Shown here: in pieces, positions 6,103-20,066 of the stretch | How positions within the stretch are numbered: position 1 is the first letter of the stretch | Layout of the letters: every line of letters begins with the position of its first letter | Notes under the pieces: model-generated | The model's input: the letters and a program-made list of their open reading frames with translations, nothing else | Databases searched by the model: none | What the model was told of the DNA's origin: nothing | Position numbers and translations under genes: made by a program | IMG/VR virus record: IMGVR_UViG_3300027859_000006 | Coordinates: 44,152-108,151 of that record | Strand: one strand, 5' to 3' | DNA length: 64,000 nt | DNA from: a virus

Positions 6103-6593
6103 TAACTACTCCCTAACTTGCTAATTAGCTTGTCATACGAAGACTCTTCAATAACATAGTTGTTATACTGATTATTAGTCTGGTTCTTAATTTGAACTTC
6201 TTCTTTCTTACGCTCAAGTTCTAGAAGCTCTTTCTTAACCTTAGCCTCGAATTCAAGCTCTTTCATCTTCATAGCGTGCTGTGCTTGCAGCAGGTCTAGA
6301 ATATCTTTACTAGAGCCCATGTCGGTATCGTCCATTTCTTCTAGTTTCTTAGCAATAAGTTCATCCATGACTCTAGCCATCTTAAAGCGATTTCGGAATC
6401 CTGCTTCGTGATAAATTCTATCTACATATTCCTTGATCTCACGCTTATTTAATTCTGATTGTAAGTCCGCTACTGGAAGCCCTAGCTCTAGACTAGTCTT
6501 CTCTATATCGCCACCAGACATTATATATGCCTCGGCTACTTTTAACCCTTCCGGACTTAACTTTTCTGGGTCTATTAATTCTGTACTGCTCAT
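6102..6593 (-). CDS. terS: Terminase small subunit
   Basis: LSPEGLKVAEAY, GFRNR, SSKDILD; directly upstream of terL. Confidence 0.85.
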   Translation of the reverse strand: MSSTELIDPEKLSPEGLKVAEAYIMSGGDIEKTSLELGLPVADLQSELNKREIKEYVDRIYHEAGFRNRFKMARVMDELIAKKLEEMDDTDMGSSKDILDLLQAQHAMKMKELEFEAKVKKELLELERKKEEVQIKNQTNNQYNNYVIEESSYDKLISKLGSS

Positions 6594-9003: not shown

Positions 9004-9177
9004 AGTGTTACACGTACGGGTATGGCCTGTACCAAGCCATTGAAGACGTGTCTGGAAACCGCCCTGTATAGTGTTTTGAGTAATATGCTAATTTTCTAAG
9101 TGTTACACGCGTCTAGTAGAATCAGCGCTGTATAGTGTTTCTATCAATATGCTAATTTTCTAAGTGTTACACACGTC
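9004..9177. repeat. Imperfect 64-bp-period direct repeat (CTGTATAGTGTTT..AATATGCTAATTTTCTAAGTGTTACAC) at the terminal-repeat boundary
   Basis: Copies start at 9064 and 9128; partial AGTGTTACACG at 9004. Confidence 0.85.
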
Positions 9178-9197
9178 TGGGGGCGACCCCGTATCTA

Positions 9198-9216
9198 AAT
9201 GAGAATAAGTCTCATT
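9198..9216. promoter_or_regulatory. Fur-box-like palindrome
   Basis: AATGAGAATAAGTCTCATT. Confidence 0.7.
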
Positions 9217-9269
9217 ACCGCCCCCTATGGGTATGGGATCACATACCTTAGCATGTGATCCCGATCCAA

Positions 9270-9653
9270 TTACTCGGTGTCGTCATCCGATCCGCTTTCT
9301 AGATCATCGATGATCGCCGCTTGTTGCTCAACAAATGCCGCTAGCGCTTCAAGTTCTCCCTTGTTCGCCTTTTCCAAGCTGTCAACCGTTAGACCTGTTG
9401 TTTCAGCGATTTGCTTAACAACTTCGATTTTACGCGTTGCGCTTGGGTTGCCCACCTTTGCCTTAGCTTCTGGCGAGATGTATTCGCCCATGCTAACCAA
9501 CTTCTGACGCGCGCTGTGTTCTGTTACGTCAGAGTCGTATGCAAGCGCTTTAAACGCTGCCGGTTCAAGCGCCTTGCCACCATTAGCTTTGATAGCTGCC
9601 GCGTATGCTGTGCTTAACTTCGCTGTGTTTTCTTCTGTCCAAACTTTAGCCAT
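9270..9653 (-). CDS. A2: A2 pre-early DNA-binding / second-step transfer protein
   Basis: WTEENTAK..SARQKLVS..Y..RK matches the T5 A2 pattern. Confidence 0.85.
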   Translation of the reverse strand: MAKVWTEENTAKLSTAYAAAIKANGGKALEPAAFKALAYDSDVTEHSARQKLVSMGEYISPEAKAKVGNPSATRKIEVVKQIAETTGLTVDSLEKANKGELEALAAFVEQQAAIIDDLESGSDDDTE

Positions 9654-9748
9654 GATTTGATCTCCTTAGATCGTAAATTAAATGTTGGTTTGTGTTTGCG
9701 GTCGTATTTTGCCCCGACCGCTTGAGCATTAAAACAAATTAAGAACGG

Positions 9749-11410
9749 TTATGCAACAACTTTTTGCGGGTTCAAGGTGATTAATTGTACCTGTCCGTTG
9801 CTGTATTCCATCATGTGACCGTGATCCCACGATGACGCGCCCCCACGGTTATAGCCTTGATTTAGTCGAGCGGTAACGCCTGTAGTAAACACTGAGCCTA
9901 TTATGCATGGGCTGTGGGTGTGTCCTGTTATTAGGTTTAAATTCCAGTCTTTGAACTGATTTGGGTTTCCTGCGCTCCCGTTTGCGCCCTTGTGCCCATG
10001 CTGCGAATAATCGAATTTAAGCGGCTTAAAAGGCTTATCCATTCGACCAAAATGCACATTATTGGGTAACTCTGGCAATGTGGTTAGATCGGCATTTTCT
10101 AAGGCGATCTGTAACGCGTTTTTCTCATGTTCACCTTGGTCTAAGGTATCGCACACTAACCAATTTAACAGATAGTATAATTTGCTGTTATGGCTGTCCT
10201 GCTTGGGATTAACGCTACTATCATCCAGCCAATTGTCGAGCGCTGAGTTGTGATTGCTCTCGGTGATCGATACGGTATCAACTATGGTAGATAATTCGGT
10301 TAACTGTACGATTACCTGTTTAAGGTCGTTCTCAACGCTTTCATGTCGATTTGCGTACAAGTGCTTCCCACTGTTACGGTTATGGTGAGACCTTGTGCTA
10401 AAGTGTAAAATATCGTCAACTGCGATCACACTTGGTTTAACTTTGTCAAGAAAGTCCATTGTCTTTTGCCAATATGCATGATCGTAAACTTCACAATGTA
10501 GATCACCAAGTTTTCCGGCTTCTGGTAATTTACCGTAATAATATTCGAGTTCAGGTAACACCACATTCAATGATCCGTCATCGCCTTGAAAAACGTTGGT
10601 AACGTTATAACCACCGTCACACTTGTAAACGATCATGGCTGCCTGTTTATGGTCTTTTTCCGCTTCTGCTCCTGCGCGACTTCTGGTGTAGTTGTACGCT
10701 GTGCAGCTACCAGTAGTGACAGCCTTTGTAATTGATTGATCGTTAAGTCGTGGTAGCGTTTTGTACTGCTGCTTGGGGCTTGCTACTACCGTGATTAGTT
10801 CACCACTATTCAGCTTGGCCGCTGCATTAATAGGCAATTTGTTAGTTGGTAAAACTGCTGCGGTGCTAGCGATCAAACAGGCGTTTTTCTCGAATAGCCA
10901 ACAATCGTCAAGCTGTAAAAACGGCGTGACCTTAGGGTTAAATACTTCGGCTTCGGTCTCTACCGCTGGACTAAAGGCGTTTTTGTTATAGTAAACGGGC
11001 ATTACCATTAAACGCGCATCTAGTAGGCTTGCTCTCATATCATCGATCATAGCAAGAAGTTGATCCTCAAAGCCTGTGGTAATAGTGTTATTTTGTGCGC
11101 TTGTAATTACGAAAACATCACCGTCTAGAACTGGCAATAAATCGCGCTGTGATTGAGTGTAACCAACTTGTGTATCTGCCGCTGGTTTAGTCGCTGCACT
11201 TGGCTTTTTCGCTTTCTCAGCCTCTCTCAGGCTCTTTAGATGCTCAACAACTAGCGGCATTAAAATAGCTGCATCGCCTTTAAGATCAAGGTTATGGATC
11301 GCATCCTCAACAACTTCCAAGCGTGAATCACGTTTACGCTTACCTAAAAGGTTATTTTCCTCGCACTCTGCGCAAAGTAGATCAAAGTTTTTATCGTTTA
11401 AATGTTTCAT
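9749..11410 (-). CDS. A1: A1 pre-early protein (host DNA degradation / second-step transfer)
   Basis: 553 aa; ITSAQNNT, GDLH, ESNH, HGHKG.NG, GHTHSP, GYN.G.SSW. Confidence 0.92.
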   Translation of the reverse strand: MKHLNDKNFDLLCAECEENNLLGKRKRDSRLEVVEDAIHNLDLKGDAAILMPLVVEHLKSLREAEKAKKPSAATKPAADTQVGYTQSQRDLLPVLDGDVFVITSAQNNTITTGFEDQLLAMIDDMRASLLDARLMVMPVYYNKNAFSPAVETEAEVFNPKVTPFLQLDDCWLFEKNACLIASTAAVLPTNKLPINAAAKLNSGELITVVASPKQQYKTLPRLNDQSITKAVTTGSCTAYNYTRSRAGAEAEKDHKQAAMIVYKCDGGYNVTNVFQGDDGSLNVVLPELEYYYGKLPEAGKLGDLHCEVYDHAYWQKTMDFLDKVKPSVIAVDDILHFSTRSHHNRNSGKHLYANRHESVENDLKQVIVQLTELSTIVDTVSITESNHNSALDNWLDDSSVNPKQDSHNSKLYYLLNWLVCDTLDQGEHEKNALQIALENADLTTLPELPNNVHFGRMDKPFKPLKFDYSQHGHKGANGSAGNPNQFKDWNLNLITGHTHSPCIIGSVFTTGVTARLNQGYNRGGASSWDHGHMMEYSNGQVQLITLNPQKVVA

Positions 11411-11475
11411 AAATAACGGTTTCCCTATTAAGGTTTTTTAAGGATCTATGAAGATCCCGTTACGAGTTGATCAAA

Positions 11476-11991
11476 TTAATGACCGTGAAAAGGAACGTGA
11501 ATTGCTTTCATGTTCAGGCGCTGTGCCATTTGGCAGTTTGCTAGATTATCATCGACCAAAAATGATCGCGACAATTCAGCCGATGAAAATGCGCGTGTTA
11601 GGTGGTACTCTTTTAATTCAAAATCTCGTCTACGATCATTTTCGCCCTCTCTGGAAAAGATTGCGGTCGGTTTGATCCCGTTTTTACGCAACCACTTTTC
11701 AGAGTTCTTGCACATAACGCGAGCGGTACAAACAAAAAATGGTCTACCTGCATCAGTTAGGAACTGCGGCACTTCTGCCAGTGGCATGATCTGATCTTTA
11801 GCAATATTTGCAGCCGTTGAAAGTTTACGATACATTTCAAGGTTAAGCGATCCGTCAGGGTGTATCGCTTGGCGGTGTGTAGCATCGATCACTACACCAT
11901 CAAGATCAAAAATAGGTATAATGCTCTGATCCAATAGGATCGCATCAGTCATTTGAAGCGCTGCCGCTCTTGTATTTTGAATTGTTAACAT
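11476..11991 (-). CDS. dmp: Deoxynucleoside 5'-monophosphatase (HAD)
   Basis: FDLDG..HR...G.L.L..YR, CTAR.M, DD; matches T5 Dmp. Confidence 0.85.
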   Translation of the reverse strand: MLTIQNTRAAALQMTDAILLDQSIIPIFDLDGVVIDATHRQAIHPDGSLNLEMYRKLSTAANIAKDQIMPLAEVPQFLTDAGRPFFVCTARVMCKNSEKWLRKNGIKPTAIFSREGENDRRRDFELKEYHLTRAFSSAELSRSFLVDDNLANCQMAQRLNMKAIHVPFHGH

Positions 11992-12164
11992 CTGGTTAAC
12001 TCCCGTTTAAGGTATATAAAAATATACGGTTTTTGTTGGGGCTGCTTGCCTCTCAACTGTTACCCATTATATAGACCAACAAACTTTTGTCTATATTAGT
12101 TTTTATACGTATGTATGAAATTATATACTTTTCATTTGCTCTGTTCTGTGCTACCCTACCAGCA

Positions 12165-12880
12165 AATGCAAATGAGAACTATTCTCATCTGACCGGCTCC
12201 GCCAGGTCGGAACGACCAAACGCAAATGAGAATGATTCGCATTCAACCGCGCCGATTTTGGGTCGCTTTCCCAGCTATGACTTATTATTGCATTTACGTG
12301 TAGCATTGTCTAGAACTAATTTATTATAAGAATGAATTTATTTAGGCGATTTTGTTATATAGTGAATTGTGGCATTCTAGCAATTACTATGCCAACTCAA
12401 AAACCGTGCCAAAGTCGCAAATCGCGTATAAGCGGTCTAAATGGCTCTGTATTGAGAGCTGGATGCAAGCCAAGCAAGTGCATTGCTATACCGTAGAAGT
12501 CTTCTCATATTGCCATTGTGTAAGTTGTTGATTTTAAAGGGAAAAATAATGCTTGACAAGCCGATGGCACGATTTTTTCTATTGCAAACGACGTGCCAAC
12601 TTTTATTGGTCAATTTCACTACTTTTTAGTCAATTTCGCTTATGGCACGGACTTTGCTAGGTAAATACGAATGCAAATGATAATGATTCGCATTTGACCG
12701 CGCCGAAAAATGGCATGGAAGTTGCTAGGGAAGTTATCAACAGGTACGTGTGAGTAAGTGAAGTTATGCACAATACTGTATAAATGTACAAGCGCTCAGC
12801 GGACGCTGGTGGACTTATCCACAGAAAATTGTGGATAAATATACCTGTATAGATATACAGTAGTTTTAAGTTGTGGGTAA
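12165..12880. promoter_or_regulatory. Cluster of host regulator sites: Fur x3, sigma54 x4 (+2 partial), IHF, DnaA x5, LexA x2
   Basis: Fur 12171, 12225, 12676; TGGCA-N6-TTGCW at 12379(-), 12583(-), 12643(+), 12711(+); IHF 12521-12533(-); DnaA 12734, 12764, 12815, 12830, 12872; SOS 12776, 12845. Confidence 0.8.
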
Positions 12881-13120
12881 CTCAAACGTACCATTTAAAG
12901 CTCCTGTAAGCCATTCTGACGGGTTTTTATGTGAGAGTAATACTAGGGCTTAGGTGGGATAGAATACCTAGTGAGTCCAGGCGAAGCCTGGTTATAAAAA
13001 ACGGGTTTTCTAGAGCGAAAAGTTATTATAAAAAGGTACTTTACAATTTTAGCCACCGCTACTATAATGTATTTAAAGGTTGAGGCAATAAGGCAGCAAC
13101 CAAAAACGGGGTATAAAAAT

Positions 13121-13486
13121 ATGAAATATTTCAATTTTGATGTTAATGCATCTATTTCTGTAAAAGTTGAACTAATTCAACTAGTATCTAACTCTGAACT
13201 AGTTGCTCTACGCTTTTCACGTACCGAAGAAATTTTTGGTATTAAAGAACTTGTAAGTGTAAAGCATGTTGCAGTGAGCAATGAAGAGGTGTACAGTACT
13301 AAGCTAGAATCCCTAGCTATTAAGGCATTTGGTACTAATAGTAAAATATACGCTACATTTTTAGTTGCAGGTAAAAACGAAAATGCTAACGAGCACTACT
13401 ATAAACTTATGGAAATTCAAGAACTCCTACACGCATTAAAAACCAGACCTAATTTAAGACTTCGTAATATGGAAGTTACAAAATAA
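13121..13486 (+). CDS. Pre-early hypothetical protein
   Basis: Sigma70 promoter and GGGG RBS upstream of MKYFNF. Confidence 0.7.
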   Translation: MKYFNFDVNASISVKVELIQLVSNSELVALRFSRTEEIFGIKELVSVKHVAVSNEEVYSTKLESLAIKAFGTNSKIYATFLVAGKNENANEHYYKLMEIQELLHALKTRPNLRLRNMEVTK

Positions 13487-13558
13487 TATAAAAAAAAAGG
13501 TCTTGACTTTCTAGTTAAGACCTGCGCCGCGCGCCGTAGGCGCCAAAATTATGACACA

Positions 13559-13606
13559 TGCAAGCTACGTGCCACTACGCAAGATTACGTGTGTGGTCTG
13601 ACCAGT
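13559..13606. promoter_or_regulatory. sigma54 site (13559-13574, -) and FadR/GntR-type palindrome TGGTCTGACCA
   Basis: TGGCACGTAGCTTGCA; TGGTCTGACCA at 13594-13604. Confidence 0.65.
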
Positions 13607-13675
13607 GAAAAAGTTGTTGCGGTCTTAGCTGGTAGCTGTATAATGATTACATCAACTAGAGACAGGGAGACAGGG

Positions 13676-13816
13676 ATGAATGCATCTCATGTTATAGGCT
13701 TGCTATTTTTAGGCCTAGCCATTGCTACACTTTTTTCTAGAGAGCCACTAGCGGCTATACCAGTGGCTACTATAGGTGTGTTGCTAATGTTTGGCAACAC
13801 TGAGAAACCAGTTTAA
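13676..13816 (+). CDS. Small membrane protein
   Basis: Two hydrophobic segments; promoter and RBS upstream. Confidence 0.6.
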   Translation: MNASHVIGLLFLGLAIATLFSREPLAAIPVATIGVLLMFGNTEKPV

Positions 13817-13840
13817 CCCCGTAGGCGATAACCGCCATTT

Positions 13841-13870
13841 TGCCCCGTCTATCTGGGCGGGGCATTTTTT
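13841..13870 (+). terminator. Rho-independent terminator
   Basis: TGCCCCGTC..GGCGGGGCA followed by T-run. Confidence 0.8.
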
Positions 13871-13882
13871 AAGGGTAGTATA

Positions 13883-14074
13883 ATGGATAAAAAATTCGGC
13901 TGGTGTGGTGCTGGCTTAATGGTAATTTTTAGCTTTACCTTGTTGCCGATTTTCGGTATACTAGGTCTGACGTTGCTTACAGTGCAAGCGGTTAGCACTA
14001 AGCAACATAACTTGACAGCTCTAAACACATTTAGTATACTAGGGCTGATTTTAAACTCTACGGGAGTAATTTAA
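13883..14074 (+). CDS. Small membrane protein
   Basis: Hydrophobic 63 aa ORF with RBS. Confidence 0.65.
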   Translation: MDKKFGWCGAGLMVIFSFTLLPIFGILGLTLLTVQAVSTKQHNLTALNTFSILGLILNSTGVI

Positions 14075-14075
14075 T

Positions 14076-14474
14076 ATGTTTAAGCAATTCGCAGCAACAC
14101 GTATTCTAGCTACAGCTATCGCTTCGGTTTTGGATTCTGGAAAGGATCTAAGTTGTGAAAATGTTGTTTCAGCTATGATGATCGAGGCAAGCAAAAACGA
14201 AATCCCTTACGCGGATTTAAAAACCTTTTGTGTTGACACGATTGTAGTGGCAACGAATACACCTACTACTCCAATCGTTGCAAACCTAGAGGAAATTGCA
14301 CAAGCGGATGATCCTCTGATGCATTTAGCCAGTCGTATATTGAGCGATGAAAACATGGGAGCGCTACAGAAAAACCTAGAGGCTGAGCCTGATGAAGATG
14401 AGGAAGAAGGTTCACTACTTGATGTGATTCGTAGCTTGCGTGGCAATGTGCGCACGGAAAAGGATGTAAACTAG
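14076..14474 (+). CDS. Pre-early hypothetical protein
   Basis: Operon-packed ORF. Confidence 0.7.
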   Translation: MFKQFAATRILATAIASVLDSGKDLSCENVVSAMMIEASKNEIPYADLKTFCVDTIVVATNTPTTPIVANLEEIAQADDPLMHLASRILSDENMGALQKNLEAEPDEDEEEGSLLDVIRSLRGNVRTEKDVN

Positions 14475-14485
14475 TAGAGGCAGCT

Positions 14486-14734
14486 ATGGCGAACACTGGC
14501 ATTGAAAAGGGGTGTTCGCCTACACCCCTGAGAACAGTAAGCACAATTCGCAGAGAGATTCAAGCCCTAGAGCAAGAATATCTCAATTTACCTAGTATAA
14601 TGGTAGCTAGTATAGTAGGGTACGATTATATAGATCGTATTAATGCGAAAAAATCAACTATTAATTTTCTCACTACCAGAATAAGACGCCGCAAGTTTTA
14701 CAACTGGCTGAGAAAGAAAACAGGGTGCAAATGA
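14486..14734 (+). CDS. Pre-early hypothetical protein
   Basis: GAGG RBS; operon-packed. Confidence 0.65.
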   Translation: MANTGIEKGCSPTPLRTVSTIRREIQALEQEYLNLPSIMVASIVGYDYIDRINAKKSTINFLTTRIRRRKFYNWLRKKTGCK

Positions 14735-14991
14735 TGAAACTAGAAGACAAACTAGAAGTGGTTAAAAAGTTAACTGACCTATTTAAACGTAACTACGGTA
14801 CACAACAAAGTGTGGAGATACTCCAAGCGTTATTCGATGCAGAGGGTAGTGCGGAGGAGGATTTCGCGGTTGATGAACTACAACCCATTTTAGGGCTACA
14901 CTTGAGCTATGTTTCTGAAAGCGATGAGACAGAGCAGAGCGACATTGATACTACCAGTTTATTATGTGAACTTTTTGCATACTGCACTTAG
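14731..14991 (+). CDS. Acidic pre-early hypothetical protein
   Basis: ATGA overlap with previous gene. Confidence 0.65.
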   Translation: MMKLEDKLEVVKKLTDLFKRNYGTQQSVEILQALFDAEGSAEEDFAVDELQPILGLHLSYVSESDETEQSDIDTTSLLCELFAYCT

Positions 14992-15093
14992 TAAAATTAA
15001 TTTCAAAAAAGCGCTTGCTTTTTTGTGTGCCCGTTGTATACTATAAACAAGTCGAGGCAATACCGCCAAGACACTAATAACGGGGTAAAAAAT

Positions 15094-15546
15094 ATGAAAA
15101 CTTCTTCTTTTGTGGCTGGTACTGTAGATTGCGTTTATCCTAGACCTGTAGAGGGTGACGACTTGGCAAAGGTGGCCGCTGCTCTAGACAGCATGGAGGA
15201 ACTTTATACAGTTGAGCTATCGCTGGATAACTCTTTTGATAGTGAGGGAGAGTACCTAGTGCCTCTATTGGCAGGGTTTGACCTGAATAATGACTACCGT
15301 GCAGAGGGCAGACTAAACAAGTCTTTCCGTGATTATAAAGACCGTAGCAAGGGCTTTGCGTTCGTAGGCAAAATGGAGGTGCAGCCTCGCTACCTACCAC
15401 AAGCAGAATTTTGGTTCAATACTACTAGAGAACCTAGCACATGGGGGGAGGCTTTGCAAGCTACCGTAGAGCGGATCAAAGAACACGACGGAAGAGGCAC
15501 TTTAGTAGTAAAAGCCCGTCGCGAAATTTTTAAAATAGCTATCTAA
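15094..15546 (+). CDS. Pre-early hypothetical protein
   Basis: TTGCTT..TATACT promoter and GGGG RBS before MKTSSF; hairpin after. Confidence 0.7.
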   Translation: MKTSSFVAGTVDCVYPRPVEGDDLAKVAAALDSMEELYTVELSLDNSFDSEGEYLVPLLAGFDLNNDYRAEGRLNKSFRDYKDRSKGFAFVGKMEVQPRYLPQAEFWFNTTREPSTWGEALQATVERIKEHDGRGTLVVKARREIFKIAI

Positions 15547-15647
15547 TCAATAATAGGGGCGCAAGCCCCCCAATACTTACAACTGGAGAAAATGAAGATG
15601 AAATTTAAAAAAGCTATGAAAATTGTAAAAAAGCTTGACAGCTAAGC

Positions 15648-15830
15648 ATGAAAGCAAAAATAACTATGCTAGAGGAATTAACAGGCATAGAGGATGGTGA
15701 AACTCTGACCAAAGAAATACTAGCGCAGGGTGTAACTCTTGAAAACGTCGCCTTAGCTAATTCAGCCGCCAACAAACATACGTTTACTTGGACAAAAGAC
15801 GACGTAGAAAGGATGCGACCTTATATGTAA
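15648..15830 (+). CDS. Hypothetical protein
   Basis: ORF track; same-strand context. Confidence 0.5.
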   Translation: MKAKITMLEELTGIEDGETLTKEILAQGVTLENVALANSAANKHTFTWTKDDVERMRPYM

Positions 15831-15846
15831 ACTAAAGTGAATAAAA

Positions 15847-16088
15847 AGTGCATATTTATGCACTTTTTTGCATAACCGCGCCGCTCCGGCACACGGATTC
15901 CCACCTATACAGTATAACAGGTCTACACGTCAACGCAAGCACTTTTTAACTGGTCAGACCACGTAATCTAAATGAGAATGATTCGCATTCAACCGCGCCG
16001 ATTTTACCATACCCTGACACAAAAAACAAGTCTACATGCAAATGATTCGTATTTAACTTTTTGAATCTAAATGCAAATGATTCGCATT
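15847..16088. promoter_or_regulatory. Second host-site cluster: ArgR box, FadR-like box, Fur x3
   Basis: AGTGCATATTTATGCACT 15847; AACTGGTCAGACCA 15948; Fur-like 15971, 16035, 16070. Confidence 0.7.
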
Positions 16089-16167
16089 CGCAAAGTAACC
16101 TTATTTTTCGACAAATAAATTTACCGAAAAATCGGGGGTTTACCCCTGTCCGGGAGCGCAGCGACCT

Positions 16168-16382
16168 GCGCCAGAGTACGATTTCGACTAGTACTAAACC
16201 GACCGCTGCCCCTACGTGTGAGCTACCCTGAGTACTAATCCGACTACCATGGCGGCTTGTCCCAATCTTCAGCAGACACTACAGCTTCTGACGGGCGTGC
16301 TGTGCTGGTGGAAGTAGACGGGCGCGAAGTGCCCGTCGCCAGAGTACGATTCTGACCTAGTACTAGACCGACCGCCTCTGCC
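16168..16382. repeat. Imperfect ~45-bp direct repeat CGCCAGAGTACGATT..CTAGTACTA.ACCGACCGC
   Basis: Copies near 16169 and 16337; partial near 16229. Confidence 0.75.
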
Positions 16383-16477
16383 AAGAGCAGGAGTTCGTCT
16401 TTTTTAGCAGCACTGAGGCTAGGGGCGGCAATGTTTAAGTGAGTACAAATCTGATTGGCTATATCTGTCTTAGTCAT
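16244..16477 (-). CDS. Truncated A2-like protein (C-terminal helical module)
   Basis: TKTDIANQI..SL.AAKKDEL..LAEAV aligns with the A2 C-terminus. Confidence 0.5.
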   Translation of the reverse strand: MTKTDIANQICTHLNIAAPSLSAAKKDELLLLAEAVGLVLGQNRTLATGTSRPSTSTSTARPSEAVVSAEDWDKPPW

Positions 16478-16509
16478 GCTTATTCCGGTTAATTCAACTT
16501 ATACGCATA

Positions 16510-17178
16510 TTATATAAGGTTTATAGCGGAAAAGCAAGGGATTTCTTGGCTTATTTTGGGCTTTTCAGGGAATCTTATATCAGGCTTAAATGCGTACCAT
16601 TTACCATCTAGAGTATAAGAATTATGATACTTTGCGCAATATATAGTGTCAAAGTTATATATACCCTCATCTTCTACATACTCCCAGAACTCAGCTAAAG
16701 ACCATCCGGCCGGTTTGACCTCCGAAGGAGGGAGGTAGCCGAGAACCCTGTAGGCGTTGTTGTCTATTAAAAATTGTTCAGTCTTGTCACCCACCAGCGC
16801 CTCTATTTCAGAGTACAAATCCGGTGACAGTTTATTTTTAGTCAGTACCTCTGTAGCAGCAAGTCTCTTTAAAGCGGCTACCCCTGTTTTTCTAACTAGA
16901 GGTAGGATCTCGGAACAGACGTAAAGCTGCCATTCTCTTGCTGTTGGCATATCAGATCGCATTAAAAAGAAGTAAAGAACCTGCTCAGCATACAATTTAC
17001 GTCCGTCGGAGCACGGTGCACTCTCGATACGTAAATCAGCATTACGCTTAAGAAAATCTCGTATTGCTCGCTTAGGCTCTGAGTAACCTAGCTTCTCTGC
17101 AAATTCTTCAAGGTCAAAATAAAATTCGTTGTTTATCTCGTAGAGTGAGACACCCTTTTCTAAGTTTAGTATATTCAT
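16510..17178 (-). CDS. Bro-N domain DNA-binding protein
   Basis: F....A..LGY..P..AI; Y.FLMRS..P.A..WQ.YV..EILP..RKTG. Confidence 0.8.
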   Translation of the reverse strand: MNILNLEKGVSLYEINNEFYFDLEEFAEKLGYSEPKRAIRDFLKRNADLRIESAPCSDGRKLYAEQVLYFFLMRSDMPTAREWQLYVCSEILPLVRKTGVAALKRLAATEVLTKNKLSPDLYSEIEALVGDKTEQFLIDNNAYRVLGYLPPSEVKPAGWSLAEFWEYVEDEGIYNFDTIYCAKYHNSYTLDGKWYAFKPDIRFPEKPKISQEIPCFSAINLI

Positions 17179-17230
17179 AGGTTTCAGTATATCAAAAATA
17201 GTCTAGGAGGGCAAATGATTTAACAAAACA

Positions 17231-17291
17231 CTTGATTCGAGACGTTTTTTAACGTATAATACTTGTATTGAATGAATGAGGAAGAACGAAT
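17231..17291 (+). promoter_or_regulatory. Early promoter-leader cassette
   Basis: TTGATT-17-TATAAT followed by ACTTGTATTGAAT..ATGAGGA. Confidence 0.8.
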
Positions 17292-17603
17292 ATGTGGAAC
17301 GAACAAAAATCTGCTCAACTAGTTAAGACTTACAAAACTAACGGCTACGATGCTGCGCAAGCGGCGAAGGCGCTTGGAGTATCGGAACGCTCTGCTATCT
17401 CTAAGCTGGTGGCTCTAGGAGAGTATGTTAAGCCTGTTAAGGTACAAGCTTCCACGGGGCGCATTAATAAAACTCAGTACATTTCTGCGGTCGAGGCAAT
17501 GCTAGGAGTCAAGTCTGGTAAACTAGCGGGTCTCTCTGGGGCTAGTGCTAATGCGATAGAAGAATTAGCGGCTGCTCTTGTAAAACTAGGAGACCGTGCA
17601 TAA
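17292..17603 (+). CDS. A2/D3-family paralogue
   Basis: MWNE..SERSAISKLV.LGEY versus A2 HSARQKLVSMGEY. Confidence 0.7.
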   Translation: MWNEQKSAQLVKTYKTNGYDAAQAAKALGVSERSAISKLVALGEYVKPVKVQASTGRINKTQYISAVEAMLGVKSGKLAGLSGASANAIEELAAALVKLGDRA

Positions 17604-17851
17604 TGGATGTTATTGTTGGAATTTGGACTGTATTAACCCTTCTAGGGTATCTAGCCTACTTCGCAGGCGACAGAGCGACTGTAGTAATGTATGACCTAGA
17701 GGTGTATCAGGGTAGAGTATTCAATTGGGCGGATGCAGTTAGTATTATCCTAGGGGTGGTATCGGGGCACTATTGGCTGTCTTTGCTAGTGCCGCTCAGC
17801 TCGATTCTCATGTATAAGCGCACTCGCAAAAAGTTGGGACGTCCCAGCTAG
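17603..17851 (+). CDS. Membrane protein
   Basis: Hydrophobic segments; coupled start. Confidence 0.6.
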   Translation: MDVIVGIWTVLTLLGYLAYFAGDRATVVMYDLEVYQGRVFNWADAVSIILGVVSGHYWLSLLVPLSSILMYKRTRKKLGRPS

Positions 17852-17944
17852 CGCCGCTCCGCGGCGAGCCCTTTCCCATCTATAACATGTATTATACGCG
17901 GAATTGAGCCCGTTTGCAAGTGATTTTTAGTAAGAAACTGGTGA

Positions 17945-18410
17945 GGCTAGGGTGGGTTTTGGGAAAGACTCGGGGAATTTTAGTCGCGCCTAACGGTCGT
18001 TTACGACCTGCGCCTCCGAAAAAGCTAAAAAATTGCTTGCGAGGCTACAAACCCAAATTTCGCCACTTCGCGGCGGATTAGGGTAAAATGTTGCAAACCC
18101 AATCTTGGCCGTAAACGGCCGGGTTATGGGTAGAAGTGTAATAGACCTAGGGGAAGGTTGGGAGGGATTTGGGATACAAGTGTAATCCGCATCGAGGAAA
18201 GAATTTGGGTAAGTGTTGCTAAGGTTCTCGCCGGAACAATGCCGAAGGCATAGAGTGGGCGAGGATATAGCAGAAGTGTAATAGAAGTATAGTAGAGTCT
18301 AGGGAGAAGTCTAGGCTAGAGTTGGAAAGGCAGCGGGCGGGGCGAGTCCAGGGCCGTATGTTGGGAAGGGTCGGGGAAGGTTGGGATGGATTTGGGATTA
18401 AGTGGGGAAA
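17945..18410 (+). repeat. G-skewed repeat region (G-quadruplex motifs, repeated GGGGAAGGTTGGGA.GGATTTGGGAT); likely injection-stop / terminal-repeat end
   Basis: Copies at 18150 and 18373; AGAAGTGTAATAG twice; strong purine skew. Confidence 0.65.
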
Positions 18411-18736
18411 CATTCCTCTGATATAGCTATAAGTATAACTATAAATAACTATCCCTCCTAGTTTTTTGATACTCAAAATTTTAAAATTGGTACTTTTTCG
18501 ATAGATACAATTATGGCAATAAAATCTTTTTGTTGTGTTCGCTTAAAGCGTCTATTTCTTAGTATTGGTTAGGCTTGTCAAAGTTTTTTGGGGTGTGCTT
18601 TAAACAGAGTCGCACCCCACTTTGAGCCAAACCGACTAAGAAGTCGCTAAAGCTCACATCAATAGAGAGTCATATAACTCTCTAGAAGATGTTAATATTG
18701 TAGCAGATTTTTTTCTCCATGTAAAGTATTTTTCTT

Positions 18737-19009
18737 TTACTCACCAATGGGTTCTGACCACAATGCTTCAAATGGTTCTTTGCAGTAAACAACATATGAC
18801 CAAGACGTGTAACTTGGGTTACTTTTTCGGTCGACTTTGTTTTCTTCTAGGATTTGAAGATATCGGTCGTATTTTTGCTTAACAGTTCTTTCCTTATCTT
18901 CCTTGAACAAGCGTTGTGTGACTTGCATATGCTTTAACAGCATTTCTTGAGTGTGGTTTGGGAATTTGTTGCAAAACTGTCTTAGTTTAACTTTGTAGGC
19001 TTCTTTCAT
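18737..19009 (-). CDS. Hypothetical protein, paralogue family I
   Basis: MKE.YKVK..QFCNK..TSW.YVVY.KE. Confidence 0.75.
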   Translation of the reverse strand: MKEAYKVKLRQFCNKFPNHTQEMLLKHMQVTQRLFKEDKERTVKQKYDRYLQILEENKVDRKSNPSYTSWSYVVYCKEPFEALWSEPIGE

Positions 19010-19260
19010 TTCTTAAAATACTCCTTATAGCTCTCTTTAAAATATACTACATACTTCCAGCTTGTCCAGCTAGGAGGGTTGGTAGGGTCTTTCAACTCTT
19101 CTGCGCTTACTCGTTCTACGAACGCTTCATAACACTCCTTAACCGAGAGGTGCAGCTTATCAGCACGAAAGCGTTTTCTAGTACTATCTAAAATTTGCTC
19201 TGTAGGGTTTTTATACTTATTACAGAACTGCTTTATTTTAACTTTGTATGATTCTTTCAT
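19006..19260 (-). CDS. Hypothetical protein, paralogue family I
   Basis: Same motif as neighbour. Confidence 0.75.
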   Translation of the reverse strand: MKESYKVKIKQFCNKYKNPTEQILDSTRKRFRADKLHLSVKECYEAFVERVSAEELKDPTNPPSWTSWKYVVYFKESYKEYFKK

Positions 19261-19267
19261 GGTGCTG

Positions 19268-19513
19268 TCAACTTCTATTAATCTTTTTTATTTCTGCTTT
19301 AATAGCTTTTAATCCTCCGACTTTTCTTAGTATCTTCCATCGGGTGTACATTACTTCTAGCTTAGACATATCTTTGTAACCTTTAATCCACCAAGTAGCA
19401 CTGGTGTAGGCGACGTAGTCGCCAGCTCCTAGGTTTACAACAGCTTGTCGGACTAGAGGACAGCTAACTCCAAAGAACTCAGTACAAATACCATATCTTA
19501 ATGCGTTAAACAT
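19268..19513 (-). CDS. Hypothetical protein, paralogue family II
   Basis: GIC..QAV.NLG...YV...WWIK. Confidence 0.75.
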   Translation of the reverse strand: MFNALRYGICTEFFGVSCPLVRQAVVNLGAGDYVAYTSATWWIKGYKDMSKLEVMYTRWKILRKVGGLKAIKAEIKKINRS

Positions 19514-20066
19514 TAGGATTATTCCTCGCTATGAGCATCATTCTAATGCTGTACCAATGTTTTATAATAAATTGTATAATCTCTTTCCTAGCCTTTCTAC
19601 CTGCTTCTGTATTTGGACTACCAGCTTTGACCCAATAGTGTTCTGCTGGGTCTATGCCAGGACACCCCATTTCATGGAGGATTTGGCCGAGATTTCCTAC
19701 ACTACCTAAAGTACCTGAAGGGGTTATATACTCAGCTATTTGATGGCACAGGTAATCGTCGCTTCTTAAATGAAAGGGGGGAGTAAAAGGTACATAGCTT
19801 CTTTGTTCAAGCTCGGTTAGTCTTTCGACTTCTTCTTTCAAAGCACTCAATCCATTCACTCGGTTCAGGATTTTGATTCTAGTAATAACAACTTTCCACC
19901 AAGGAATATTGTAGTAGTCTTTAATCCACCACACGTTCTCCTTATGCTCAACGTATTGAGAGCCGCCTAGATTAATGACGGCTTGTTTAACAATAGGCGA
20001 ACTAAGGTTAGGTCTGTCACCTTTTACGGCTATACAAATACCTACTAATAGTGCTCTTAAATACAT
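19506..20066 (-). CDS. Hypothetical protein, paralogue family II
   Basis: Same motif plus second WV.AG.P.T..G.KAR domain. Confidence 0.75.
   Translation of the reverse strand: MYLRALLVGICIAVKGDRPNLSSPIVKQAVINLGGSQYVEHKENVWWIKDYYNIPWWKVVITRIKILNRVNGLSALKEEVERLTELEQRSYVPFTPPFHLRSDDYLCHQIAEYITPSGTLGSVGNLGQILHEMGCPGIDPAEHYWVKAGSPNTEAGRKARKEIIQFIIKHWYSIRMMLIARNNPNV

Follow-up and report, generated by a model that had tools for sequence, protein, structure and literature searches.

Positions 12165-12880 of the window analysed here, a 64,000-nucleotide (nt) stretch that corresponds to bases 44152-108151 of an IMG/VR virus contig (108,151 base pairs (bp), judged 99% complete), make up the central, untranslated control region between the divergent pre-early operons of a marine T5-like phage with a Vibrio-type host. 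A leftward pre-early operon with homologues of dmp, A1 and A2 lies on one side (Table 1), and plus-strand genes run from 13121 onward on the other, the first gene of this rightward operon being 13121-13486. T5, Stitch, phi 3, IW18 and D386 share this layout: when their genomes are read from the left end, a leftward A2/A1/dmp operon is followed by a divergent non-coding region, a rightward small-gene operon, a second non-coding region and the end of the terminal repeat. Because of this shared layout, the stretch is assigned to the divergent pre-early control region, with genes on both sides. An earlier note on this DNA, made from its letters alone, had regarded the sites found there as facing no gene, a description that had to be given up, as two divergent sigma-70-type promoters flank the stretch and two sigma-54-type elements point toward each operon. 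Both hexamers of the promoter facing dmp-A1-A2 are unchanged in two close relatives.

The stretch is indeed non-coding, as had been claimed: the open reading frames contained in it have no match to Pfam or any other family, and indels of 14 and 61 nt in close relatives disrupt every one of them. No intrinsic terminators were found in 11900-13700, and an Rfam scan of 11900-19600 returned sub-threshold noise only, with no known small RNA downstream of the sigma-54-type elements.

Table 1. Positions, strands and supporting observations for the features in and around the divergent pre-early control region (window coordinates).
Feature	Position	Strand	Basis or remark
Terminus-type element: Fur-box-like palindrome, then ACCGCC-rich tail	9198-9230	+	Same element near deposited left ends of relatives
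A2 homologue (DNA-binding pre-early protein)	9270-9653	-	34% identity to T5 A2, 31% to phi 3 A2; phrog_1725
A1 homologue (DNA transfer protein)	9749-11410	-	phrog_1745, E = 5e-130; 47% identity to Vibrio phage phi 3 A1
dmp-like HAD phosphatase, first gene of leftward pre-early operon	11476-11991	-	31% identity to phi 3 dmp
Sigma-70-type promoter facing dmp-A1-A2 operon	12066-12093	-	11/12 consensus matches
Two 37-nt repeat copies (Fur-box-like palindrome + ACCGCGCCG-type tail)	12165-12201, 12219-12255	+	Repeat and Fur-consensus scans
Full sigma-54-type element, pointing left toward dmp-A1-A2 operon	12380-12394	-	Core positions kept in relatives
Partial sigma-54-type element, pointing left toward dmp-A1-A2 operon	12397-12411	-	One mismatch; core positions kept in relatives
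IHF-consensus match	12521-12533	-	Chance level: 5 in window vs 4.66 expected
Partial sigma-54-type element	12565-12579	+	One mismatch
Full sigma-54-type element	12584-12598	-	Makes inverted repeat with partial 12565-12579(+)
Sigma-54-type element, pointing right	12643-12657	+	In relatives spacer varies, -24/-12 cores kept
Third 37-nt repeat copy, best Fur-box match (16/18)	12670-12706	+	At predicted start of 12643 element, 35 nt upstream of 12711 element
Sigma-54-type element, pointing right	12711-12725	+	DnaA-type box begins 23 nt past its first base
DnaA/LexA module	12734-12880	both	DnaA boxes 12734+ (1 mismatch), 12764+, 12815+, 12830-, 12872- (1 mismatch)
LexA-type boxes of module	12776-12791 (1 core mismatch), 12845-12860 (exact CTGT-N8-ACAG)		Pattern match
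Sigma-70-type promoter facing rightward operon	13040-13068	+	11/12 consensus matches
Fifth sigma-54-type element, in 100-nt gap inside rightward operon, pointing against operon	13560-13574	-	Pattern match
Second non-coding block, three further palindrome-family copies	15970-16090	+	First 36 nt identical to 12224-12259
G-rich short-repeat block	17900-18450	+	GC skew +0.14 to +0.20; resembles repeats at annotated repeat ends of T5, Stitch, phi 3

The region combines sigma-54-type elements, DnaA boxes, LexA-type boxes and Fur-box-like palindromes, and these sites occur far above chance, are confined genome-wide to the terminal-repeat region, are conserved in order and spacing and are under purifying selection. 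All the motifs listed in the earlier note were recovered at their places by pattern scans. With the search pattern TGGCAY-N5-TTGC, five sigma-54-type matches were found in the window (12380-, 12584-, 12643+, 12711+ and 13560-), where shuffled sequence leads one to expect 0.17 and none of 100 shuffles reaches five; the whole genome of 108 kilobases (kb) holds no match beyond these, so that all lie within 1.2 kb (12380-13574). The palindrome family is represented by six copies in the window (0.06 expected), which lie, beyond the three of the stretch, at 9198, 15971 and 16070. The DnaA consensus as counted over the window does not exceed chance (8 vs 6.15 expected); the signal lies in local clustering, with three consensus and two one-mismatch boxes inside 147 bp, and the inverted pair 12815/12830 makes up two of the three perfect DnaA boxes of the genome. 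CTGT-N8-ACAG occurs twice in the window (0.86 expected) and nowhere else in the genome; the box at 12845 is one of this pair. Chance is thus rejected for sigma-54, DnaA, LexA and the palindromes and accepted for the match to the IHF consensus, and the proposal of an array beyond chance stands for the first four, which are enriched or clustered as well as conserved, but not for the last.

Conservation was assessed at two distances. Searches of the region by megablast and blastn gave no DNA similarity to deposited phages, and relatives were reached through the A1 protein instead. Among three genomes that are about 88% identical in DNA (this phage and two IMG/VR contigs), aligned across the region, the -24/-12 cores of the sigma-54-type elements are invariant in 34 of 36 columns and their spacers in 15 of 24; the corresponding figures are 43/45 for the DnaA boxes, 16/16 and 15/16 for the two LexA-type boxes, 49/57 for the palindromes and 426/535 for the rest of the region. 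The IHF match, with 10 of 13 invariant columns, does no better than this background and is altered in the close relative L004.

The wider survey covered 80 loci (1.29 Mb) around A1 homologues, with the reversed pattern as control. Vibrio phage HNL01, considered as a relative, was set aside, since its A1 homologue lies within a long co-directional operon without the T5-type layout. Palindromes were found 315 times (4 in the control), perfect DnaA boxes 243 times (8), LexA-type boxes 127 times (1) and sigma-54-type elements 52 times (4). Almost all T5-type loci that extend into the upstream non-coding DNA have LexA boxes, DnaA boxes and palindromes, while sigma-54-type elements occur only in Vibrio-type lineages and in one group, probably of Pectobacterium type (L029-L031). 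Distant A1 loci without the T5-type layout have almost no such motifs and none that are clustered. The densest array was seen in two IMG/VR contigs (L019/L020) whose A1 is 36% identical; there, some 3.5 kb upstream of A1 contain 14 perfect DnaA boxes together with nine palindromes and four sigma-54-type elements. The earlier note had named in advance a lack of enrichment over shuffled sequence and a lack of conservation as grounds for abandoning the idea; enrichment was found, and so was conservation in near as well as distant relatives.

In the whole genomes that were checked, nearly all sites of these types fall in the terminal repeat. This applies to every sigma-54-type match in ten genomes (phi 3, D386, IW18, G001, five further IMG/VR genomes and this phage), with 0-1 matches for the reversed pattern, and to the LexA-type boxes of T5, Stitch, phi 3, IW18 and D386, except two one-mismatch matches in Stitch. 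The palindromes are likewise located in terminal repeats, and the T5 array sits inside the annotated injection stop signal. The arrangement of the sites also follows a shared grammar: in at least seven lineages a DnaA box begins 23-27 nt past the first base of a sigma-54-type element, where transcription is predicted to start, and in five a palindrome begins 32-41 nt upstream of such an element. In phi 3, IW18 and L022, a unit of sigma-54-type element, DnaA, LexA, DnaA and LexA has identical offsets of 26, 36, 76 and 106 nt; in this phage the order is the same, with offsets of 23, 53, 65, 104, 119 and 134 nt.

These data bear on the suggestion that the DNA acts as a sponge which titrates several host regulators off the chromosome. 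Many clustered sites for several regulators, doubled by the terminal repeat, would suit such a function. The stoichiometry does not, as only about 20 sites arrive on a single entering DNA copy and LexA, DnaA and Fur are each present in the host in thousands; only sigma-54, at about 100 copies, could be dented, and only after replication. Titration would also be pointless in a host whose DNA is degraded within minutes by T5-type phages, and it does not need the conserved order and spacing. We therefore regard a sponge as extremely improbable. The two other functions suggested in the earlier note, a host-state sensor and an anchor, are possible.

The sigma-54-type elements deserve separate attention, as they represent a rare case of such elements being conserved in a virulent phage. 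The GG/GC core is present with exact spacing, and the sites agree with the extended sigma-54 consensus at positions that the search did not use: among 23 distinct sites across phages, G follows TGGCAY in 17 and A or T follows TTGC in 22. In the stretch, each operon is faced by two of the four full elements, and the leaders measure about 375-580 nt. Between the back-to-back elements 12584- and 12643+, two 18-nt direct repeats 20 nt apart (12603-12640) fill the 44-nt gap; the second of them is poorly conserved in relatives. Consensus -24/-12 sites that are bound but silent have been described by ChIP-seq in E. coli, many of them antisense or far from gene starts, and their conservation is limited to the important positions, as in this phage (PMC4591121). 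Those sites differ in being chromosomal and mostly intragenic, whereas the phage elements are clustered in non-coding DNA beside DnaA and LexA sites.

One way to understand this arrangement is that it serves host-state-dependent promoter control only, with the sigma-54-type elements as auxiliary promoters, two per operon, and no role in DNA transfer. A host activator that responds to, for example, membrane stress, nitrogen or quorum state would fire the elements, and LexA, DnaA and the palindrome binder would act as operators in the long leaders, so that pre-early expression tracks host physiology. The symmetric layout fits this proposal well, with 12380- and 12584- facing dmp-A1-A2 and 12643+ and 12711+ facing the rightward operon, as do the leaders, which are within or close to the 360-760 nt range of E. 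coli sigma-54 promoters (PMC4591121), the DnaA box that coincides with the predicted start in at least seven lineages and the central sense-oriented elements that D386 and phi 3 also possess; for this window in particular, the proposal is a strong one. It accounts less well for other observations. A search for PF00158 found no such activator domain in the phage genome, and no known upstream activator site was recognised. In phi 3, IW18 and L022, the distal module has its sigma-54-type element directed into the 3' end of the operon next to it, and 13560- lies antisense within an operon. The modules of T5 overlap no mapped promoter, and T5 is without any sigma-54-type element. Taken as the sole function of the region, promoter control is in our view possible, though on balance doubtful.

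Next to the rightward-pointing elements lies the DnaA/LexA module. Its exact LexA-type box at 12845, which has an AT-rich spacer, sits 6 nt from the DnaA pair 12815/12830, the corresponding gap in T5 being 10 nt. The box is located about 180 nt upstream of the rightward sigma-70-type promoter, without the promoter overlap typical of a LexA operator, and T5 shows the same distance class. The module is flanked by a 13-nt inverted repeat (12743-12755 / 12880-12892, 92% complementary). No second, inverted module copy was found near the repeat end, as 12881-20000 contains neither a DnaA box with up to one mismatch nor a LexA-type box.

A cluster of this kind, with an inverted pair of perfect DnaA boxes and further boxes nearby, could suggest a DnaA-dependent replication origin or an oriC-like element. 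However, 11992-13066 contains no GATC, unlike oriC, and the stretch therefore lacks an oriC-like character despite its DnaA boxes; LexA and sigma-54 sites are not origin features either, and T5 has its origins near the genome centre, with the replication genes arriving only with the second step (Davison preprint, 10.1101/866236). A role as origin is thus very improbable. The distribution of GATC is unusual in another respect: the A2-A1-dmp operon (9170-11991) is very dense in it, with 37 sites or 13.1/kb against 1.23/kb genome-wide, and the non-coding blocks have none. This pattern recurs in the close relatives G001 and L013, is weaker in phi 3 and is absent in T5, Stitch, IW18, D386, L019 and L022. 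GATC richness was considered as a family-wide oriC-like trait and rejected; it is lineage-specific.

The third class of sites, the palindromes, had been taken for Fur boxes. The 19-mers at 12171, 12225 and 12676 do score 14, 15 and 16 of 18 positions against the 19-bp Vibrio Fur-box consensus (PMC7536154), and this resemblance is upheld. They also belong to a phage repeat family. A score of at least 14 is reached at no more than nine positions of the genome, of which seven are copies of the palindrome repeat or overlap one. Judged by their sequence, the 19-mers are the core of a 37-nt phage repeat and of a family-wide palindrome, to which Fur may bind as one candidate.

The alternative candidates are phage proteins, such as A2, the small terminase or a virion end-binding protein, which would bind the sites, above all the palindromes, to package the DNA, to recognise its ends or to bring about second-step transfer; any likeness to host consensus sequences would then be incidental. 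In many T5-like genomes, a palindrome with an ACCGCC-rich tail is found 16-29 nt from the left end, and the internal 37-nt repeats share this two-part form. At one half-site position, moreover, G outnumbers the T expected from the Fur consensus (266 vs 163), a preference that speaks for a phage binder, although either base is compatible with known Fur boxes. The remaining sites are harder to reconcile with phage binders. An identical LexA-type 16-mer is often shared by phages that infect Escherichia, Salmonella and Vibrio and have A1 proteins of no more than about 30% identity, and the DnaA and sigma-54 sites fit the host consensus even at positions outside the search. Binding by phage proteins is therefore an unlikely explanation for the array.

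The terminus-type palindrome also helps to place the stretch on the genome. The contig has no end repeats and would contain a single (collapsed) copy of the terminal direct repeat, whose probable limits are taken from the element at 9198-9230 and the T5-like short repeats at 17.9-18.45 kb. In phi 3 this element is 29 nt away from the deposited left end, and in Stitch 16 nt; about ten isolate genomes in IMG/VR have it at a distance of 16-17 nt from the end of the contig. By analogy, the physical left end of the genome is predicted at about 9170-9182, and the stretch would therefore lie 3.0-3.7 kb inside the first DNA to enter. Its location within the first-injected DNA, as the earlier note had assumed, is very probable because homologues of A1, A2 and dmp adjoin it and the conserved left-terminus element is present. 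On its right side the terminal repeat probably ends in the G-rich block, which is, to judge from its repeats, also the likelier seat of a T5-type injection stop signal. The non-coding block that contains the second palindrome array (15547-16509) also has a pair of GC-rich repeats, each about 36 nt long, near 16171 and 16341. For collapsed metagenomic assemblies of T5-like phages in general, the terminus palindrome could provide a sequence marker for placing the physical left end.

Among the neighbouring genes, the dmp-like protein has a HAD_PNKP match that falls under the cut-off. To the left of A2, a probable small terminase, a large terminase and a fused protease/major head protein are encoded; the last of these is a single open reading frame of 645 amino acids (948-2885) that matches the families of both head maturation protease and major head protein and thus appears to be a fused protease/capsid gene. 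Toward the left end, the pre-early genes are ordered dmp, A1, A2 here and A2, A1, dmp in T5, phi 3, IW18 and D386.

The region is a variant of the known first-step-transfer repeat regions of T5, and its position between the divergent pre-early operons points to Repeat Regions 1/2 as its counterpart. These are described as IRC-spacer-IRD between divergent pre-early promoters, with Repeat Region 3 at the injection stop signal (Heusterspreute, 1987, as cited; Davison, 2020, bioRxiv 10.1101/866236). The likeness extends beyond position. In both phages an untranslated block, which lies inside the terminal repeat in T5 and probably also here, adjoins A2/A1/dmp, paired DnaA boxes stand beside a near-perfect LexA-type palindrome (the T5 LexA-type boxes are at 6213 and 9411), and arrays of the same Fur-box-like palindrome are present (T5 copies at 9552-9709). 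The T5 modules (6121-6228 and 9411-9518) do not overlap annotated promoters, and the second is inside the annotated injection stop signal. T5 differs in having two inverted module copies, where this phage has one, and a direct DnaA pair with a 3-nt gap, where the pair is inverted with a 6-nt gap here; the order dmp-A1-A2 is swapped, and neither T5 nor Stitch has a sigma-54-type element, compared with five to seven here. The Vibrio T5-like phages phi 3, IW18 and D386 (Ermolyevavirinae where classified) have the same set of site types in their terminal-repeat non-coding regions, but no DNA that can be aligned with this phage. In phi 3 and IW18 the full unit occupies the far repeat end and is directed into the rightward operon at its 3' end, whereas it is central and in the sense direction here.

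Parts of this content have been described before. Davison (preprint, 10.1101/866236) reported paired DnaA boxes in Repeat Regions 1-3 of T5 and proposed that membrane-bound DnaA stops injection; LexA, SOS, Fur and sigma factors are not mentioned there, and the functions of the palindromes are said to defy guessing. A paper on BF23 from 2023 names DnaA boxes only and remarks that experimental work there is lacking; a literature search on T5 with LexA, Fur box or RpoN gave nothing relevant among searchable papers. In these papers, the LexA, sigma-54 and Fur-like content of T5-type repeat regions is undescribed, and only the DnaA boxes have been described.

What the sites do during infection can be approached from their arrangement. 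Our tentative preference, held at somewhat less than even confidence, is that host proteins on the entering DNA would form a complex which combines a structural hold with the tuning of transcription. Host DnaA, LexA and sigma-54 RNA polymerase would occupy their sites before any phage protein exists, and the palindromes may attract Fur or a phage protein. The resulting nucleoprotein complex would form between two strong sigma-70 promoters, where it could hold and organise the entering DNA as an injection-pause module like that proposed for the DnaA boxes of T5. It may at the same time tune pre-early transcription, since the sigma-54-type elements could fire through the operator-studded leaders only with an active host activator.

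The structural side of this proposal is favoured for several reasons. DnaA/LexA modules occur throughout the family, and those of T5 lie clear of annotated promoters, one being part of the injection stop signal. Sigma-54-type elements occur in both orientations, some of them antisense (13560 here, and the distal modules of phi 3, IW18 and L022), and the phage is without an activator. In addition, an old minor first-step DNA band of T5, cited in the Davison preprint (10.1101/866236), maps near Repeat Region 2.

Other considerations weigh against a combined hold and tuning complex. It is from the sites themselves that we infer which proteins bind and what their binding would cause. The phage has a single DnaA/LexA module, which sits mid-repeat; it and the whole stretch are away from the presumed boundary of first- and second-step transfer, more likely to be found near 17.9-18.45 kb. 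T5 forms plaques on E. coli strains mutated in recA, fur or rpoN, and therefore no single one of these factors can be essential. The four full sigma-54-type elements are arranged like ordinary divergent promoters, two per operon, the phage genome encodes no activator for them, and their leaders are of a length known from E. coli. Finally, bound sigma-54 polymerase was found to have no roadblock effect in E. coli (PMC4591121).

A bolder extension, which we consider quite unlikely, would make DnaA, LexA, Fur and sigma-54 polymerase a clamp and clock, redundant and independent of host state, on the DNA that enters first in T5-type phages. Loading of these proteins would take seconds, and the DNA would be held or paused with only its pre-early genes accessible. 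As A1 then drives the destruction of the host chromosome, binding proteins would be set free in large numbers and LexA cleavage triggered, and the complex would thereby be remodelled. If true, this would link three classic A1 phenotypes, namely the loss of host DNA, the shut-off of pre-early expression and second-step transfer.

The halt of T5 after injection of 8% of its genome, and the subsequent restart, have been a puzzle for some sixty years, and DnaA is the only host factor so far proposed from sequence for this pause. The present analysis adds family-wide consensus LexA boxes and Fur-box-like palindromes, which share the same untranslated blocks with the DnaA boxes, and, in the Vibrio and Pectobacterium lineages, sites for sigma-54 polymerase that follow a fixed grammar. 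This narrows the injection puzzle to a handful of host proteins and of sites on the phage DNA, which can be tested in E. coli with T5 itself.

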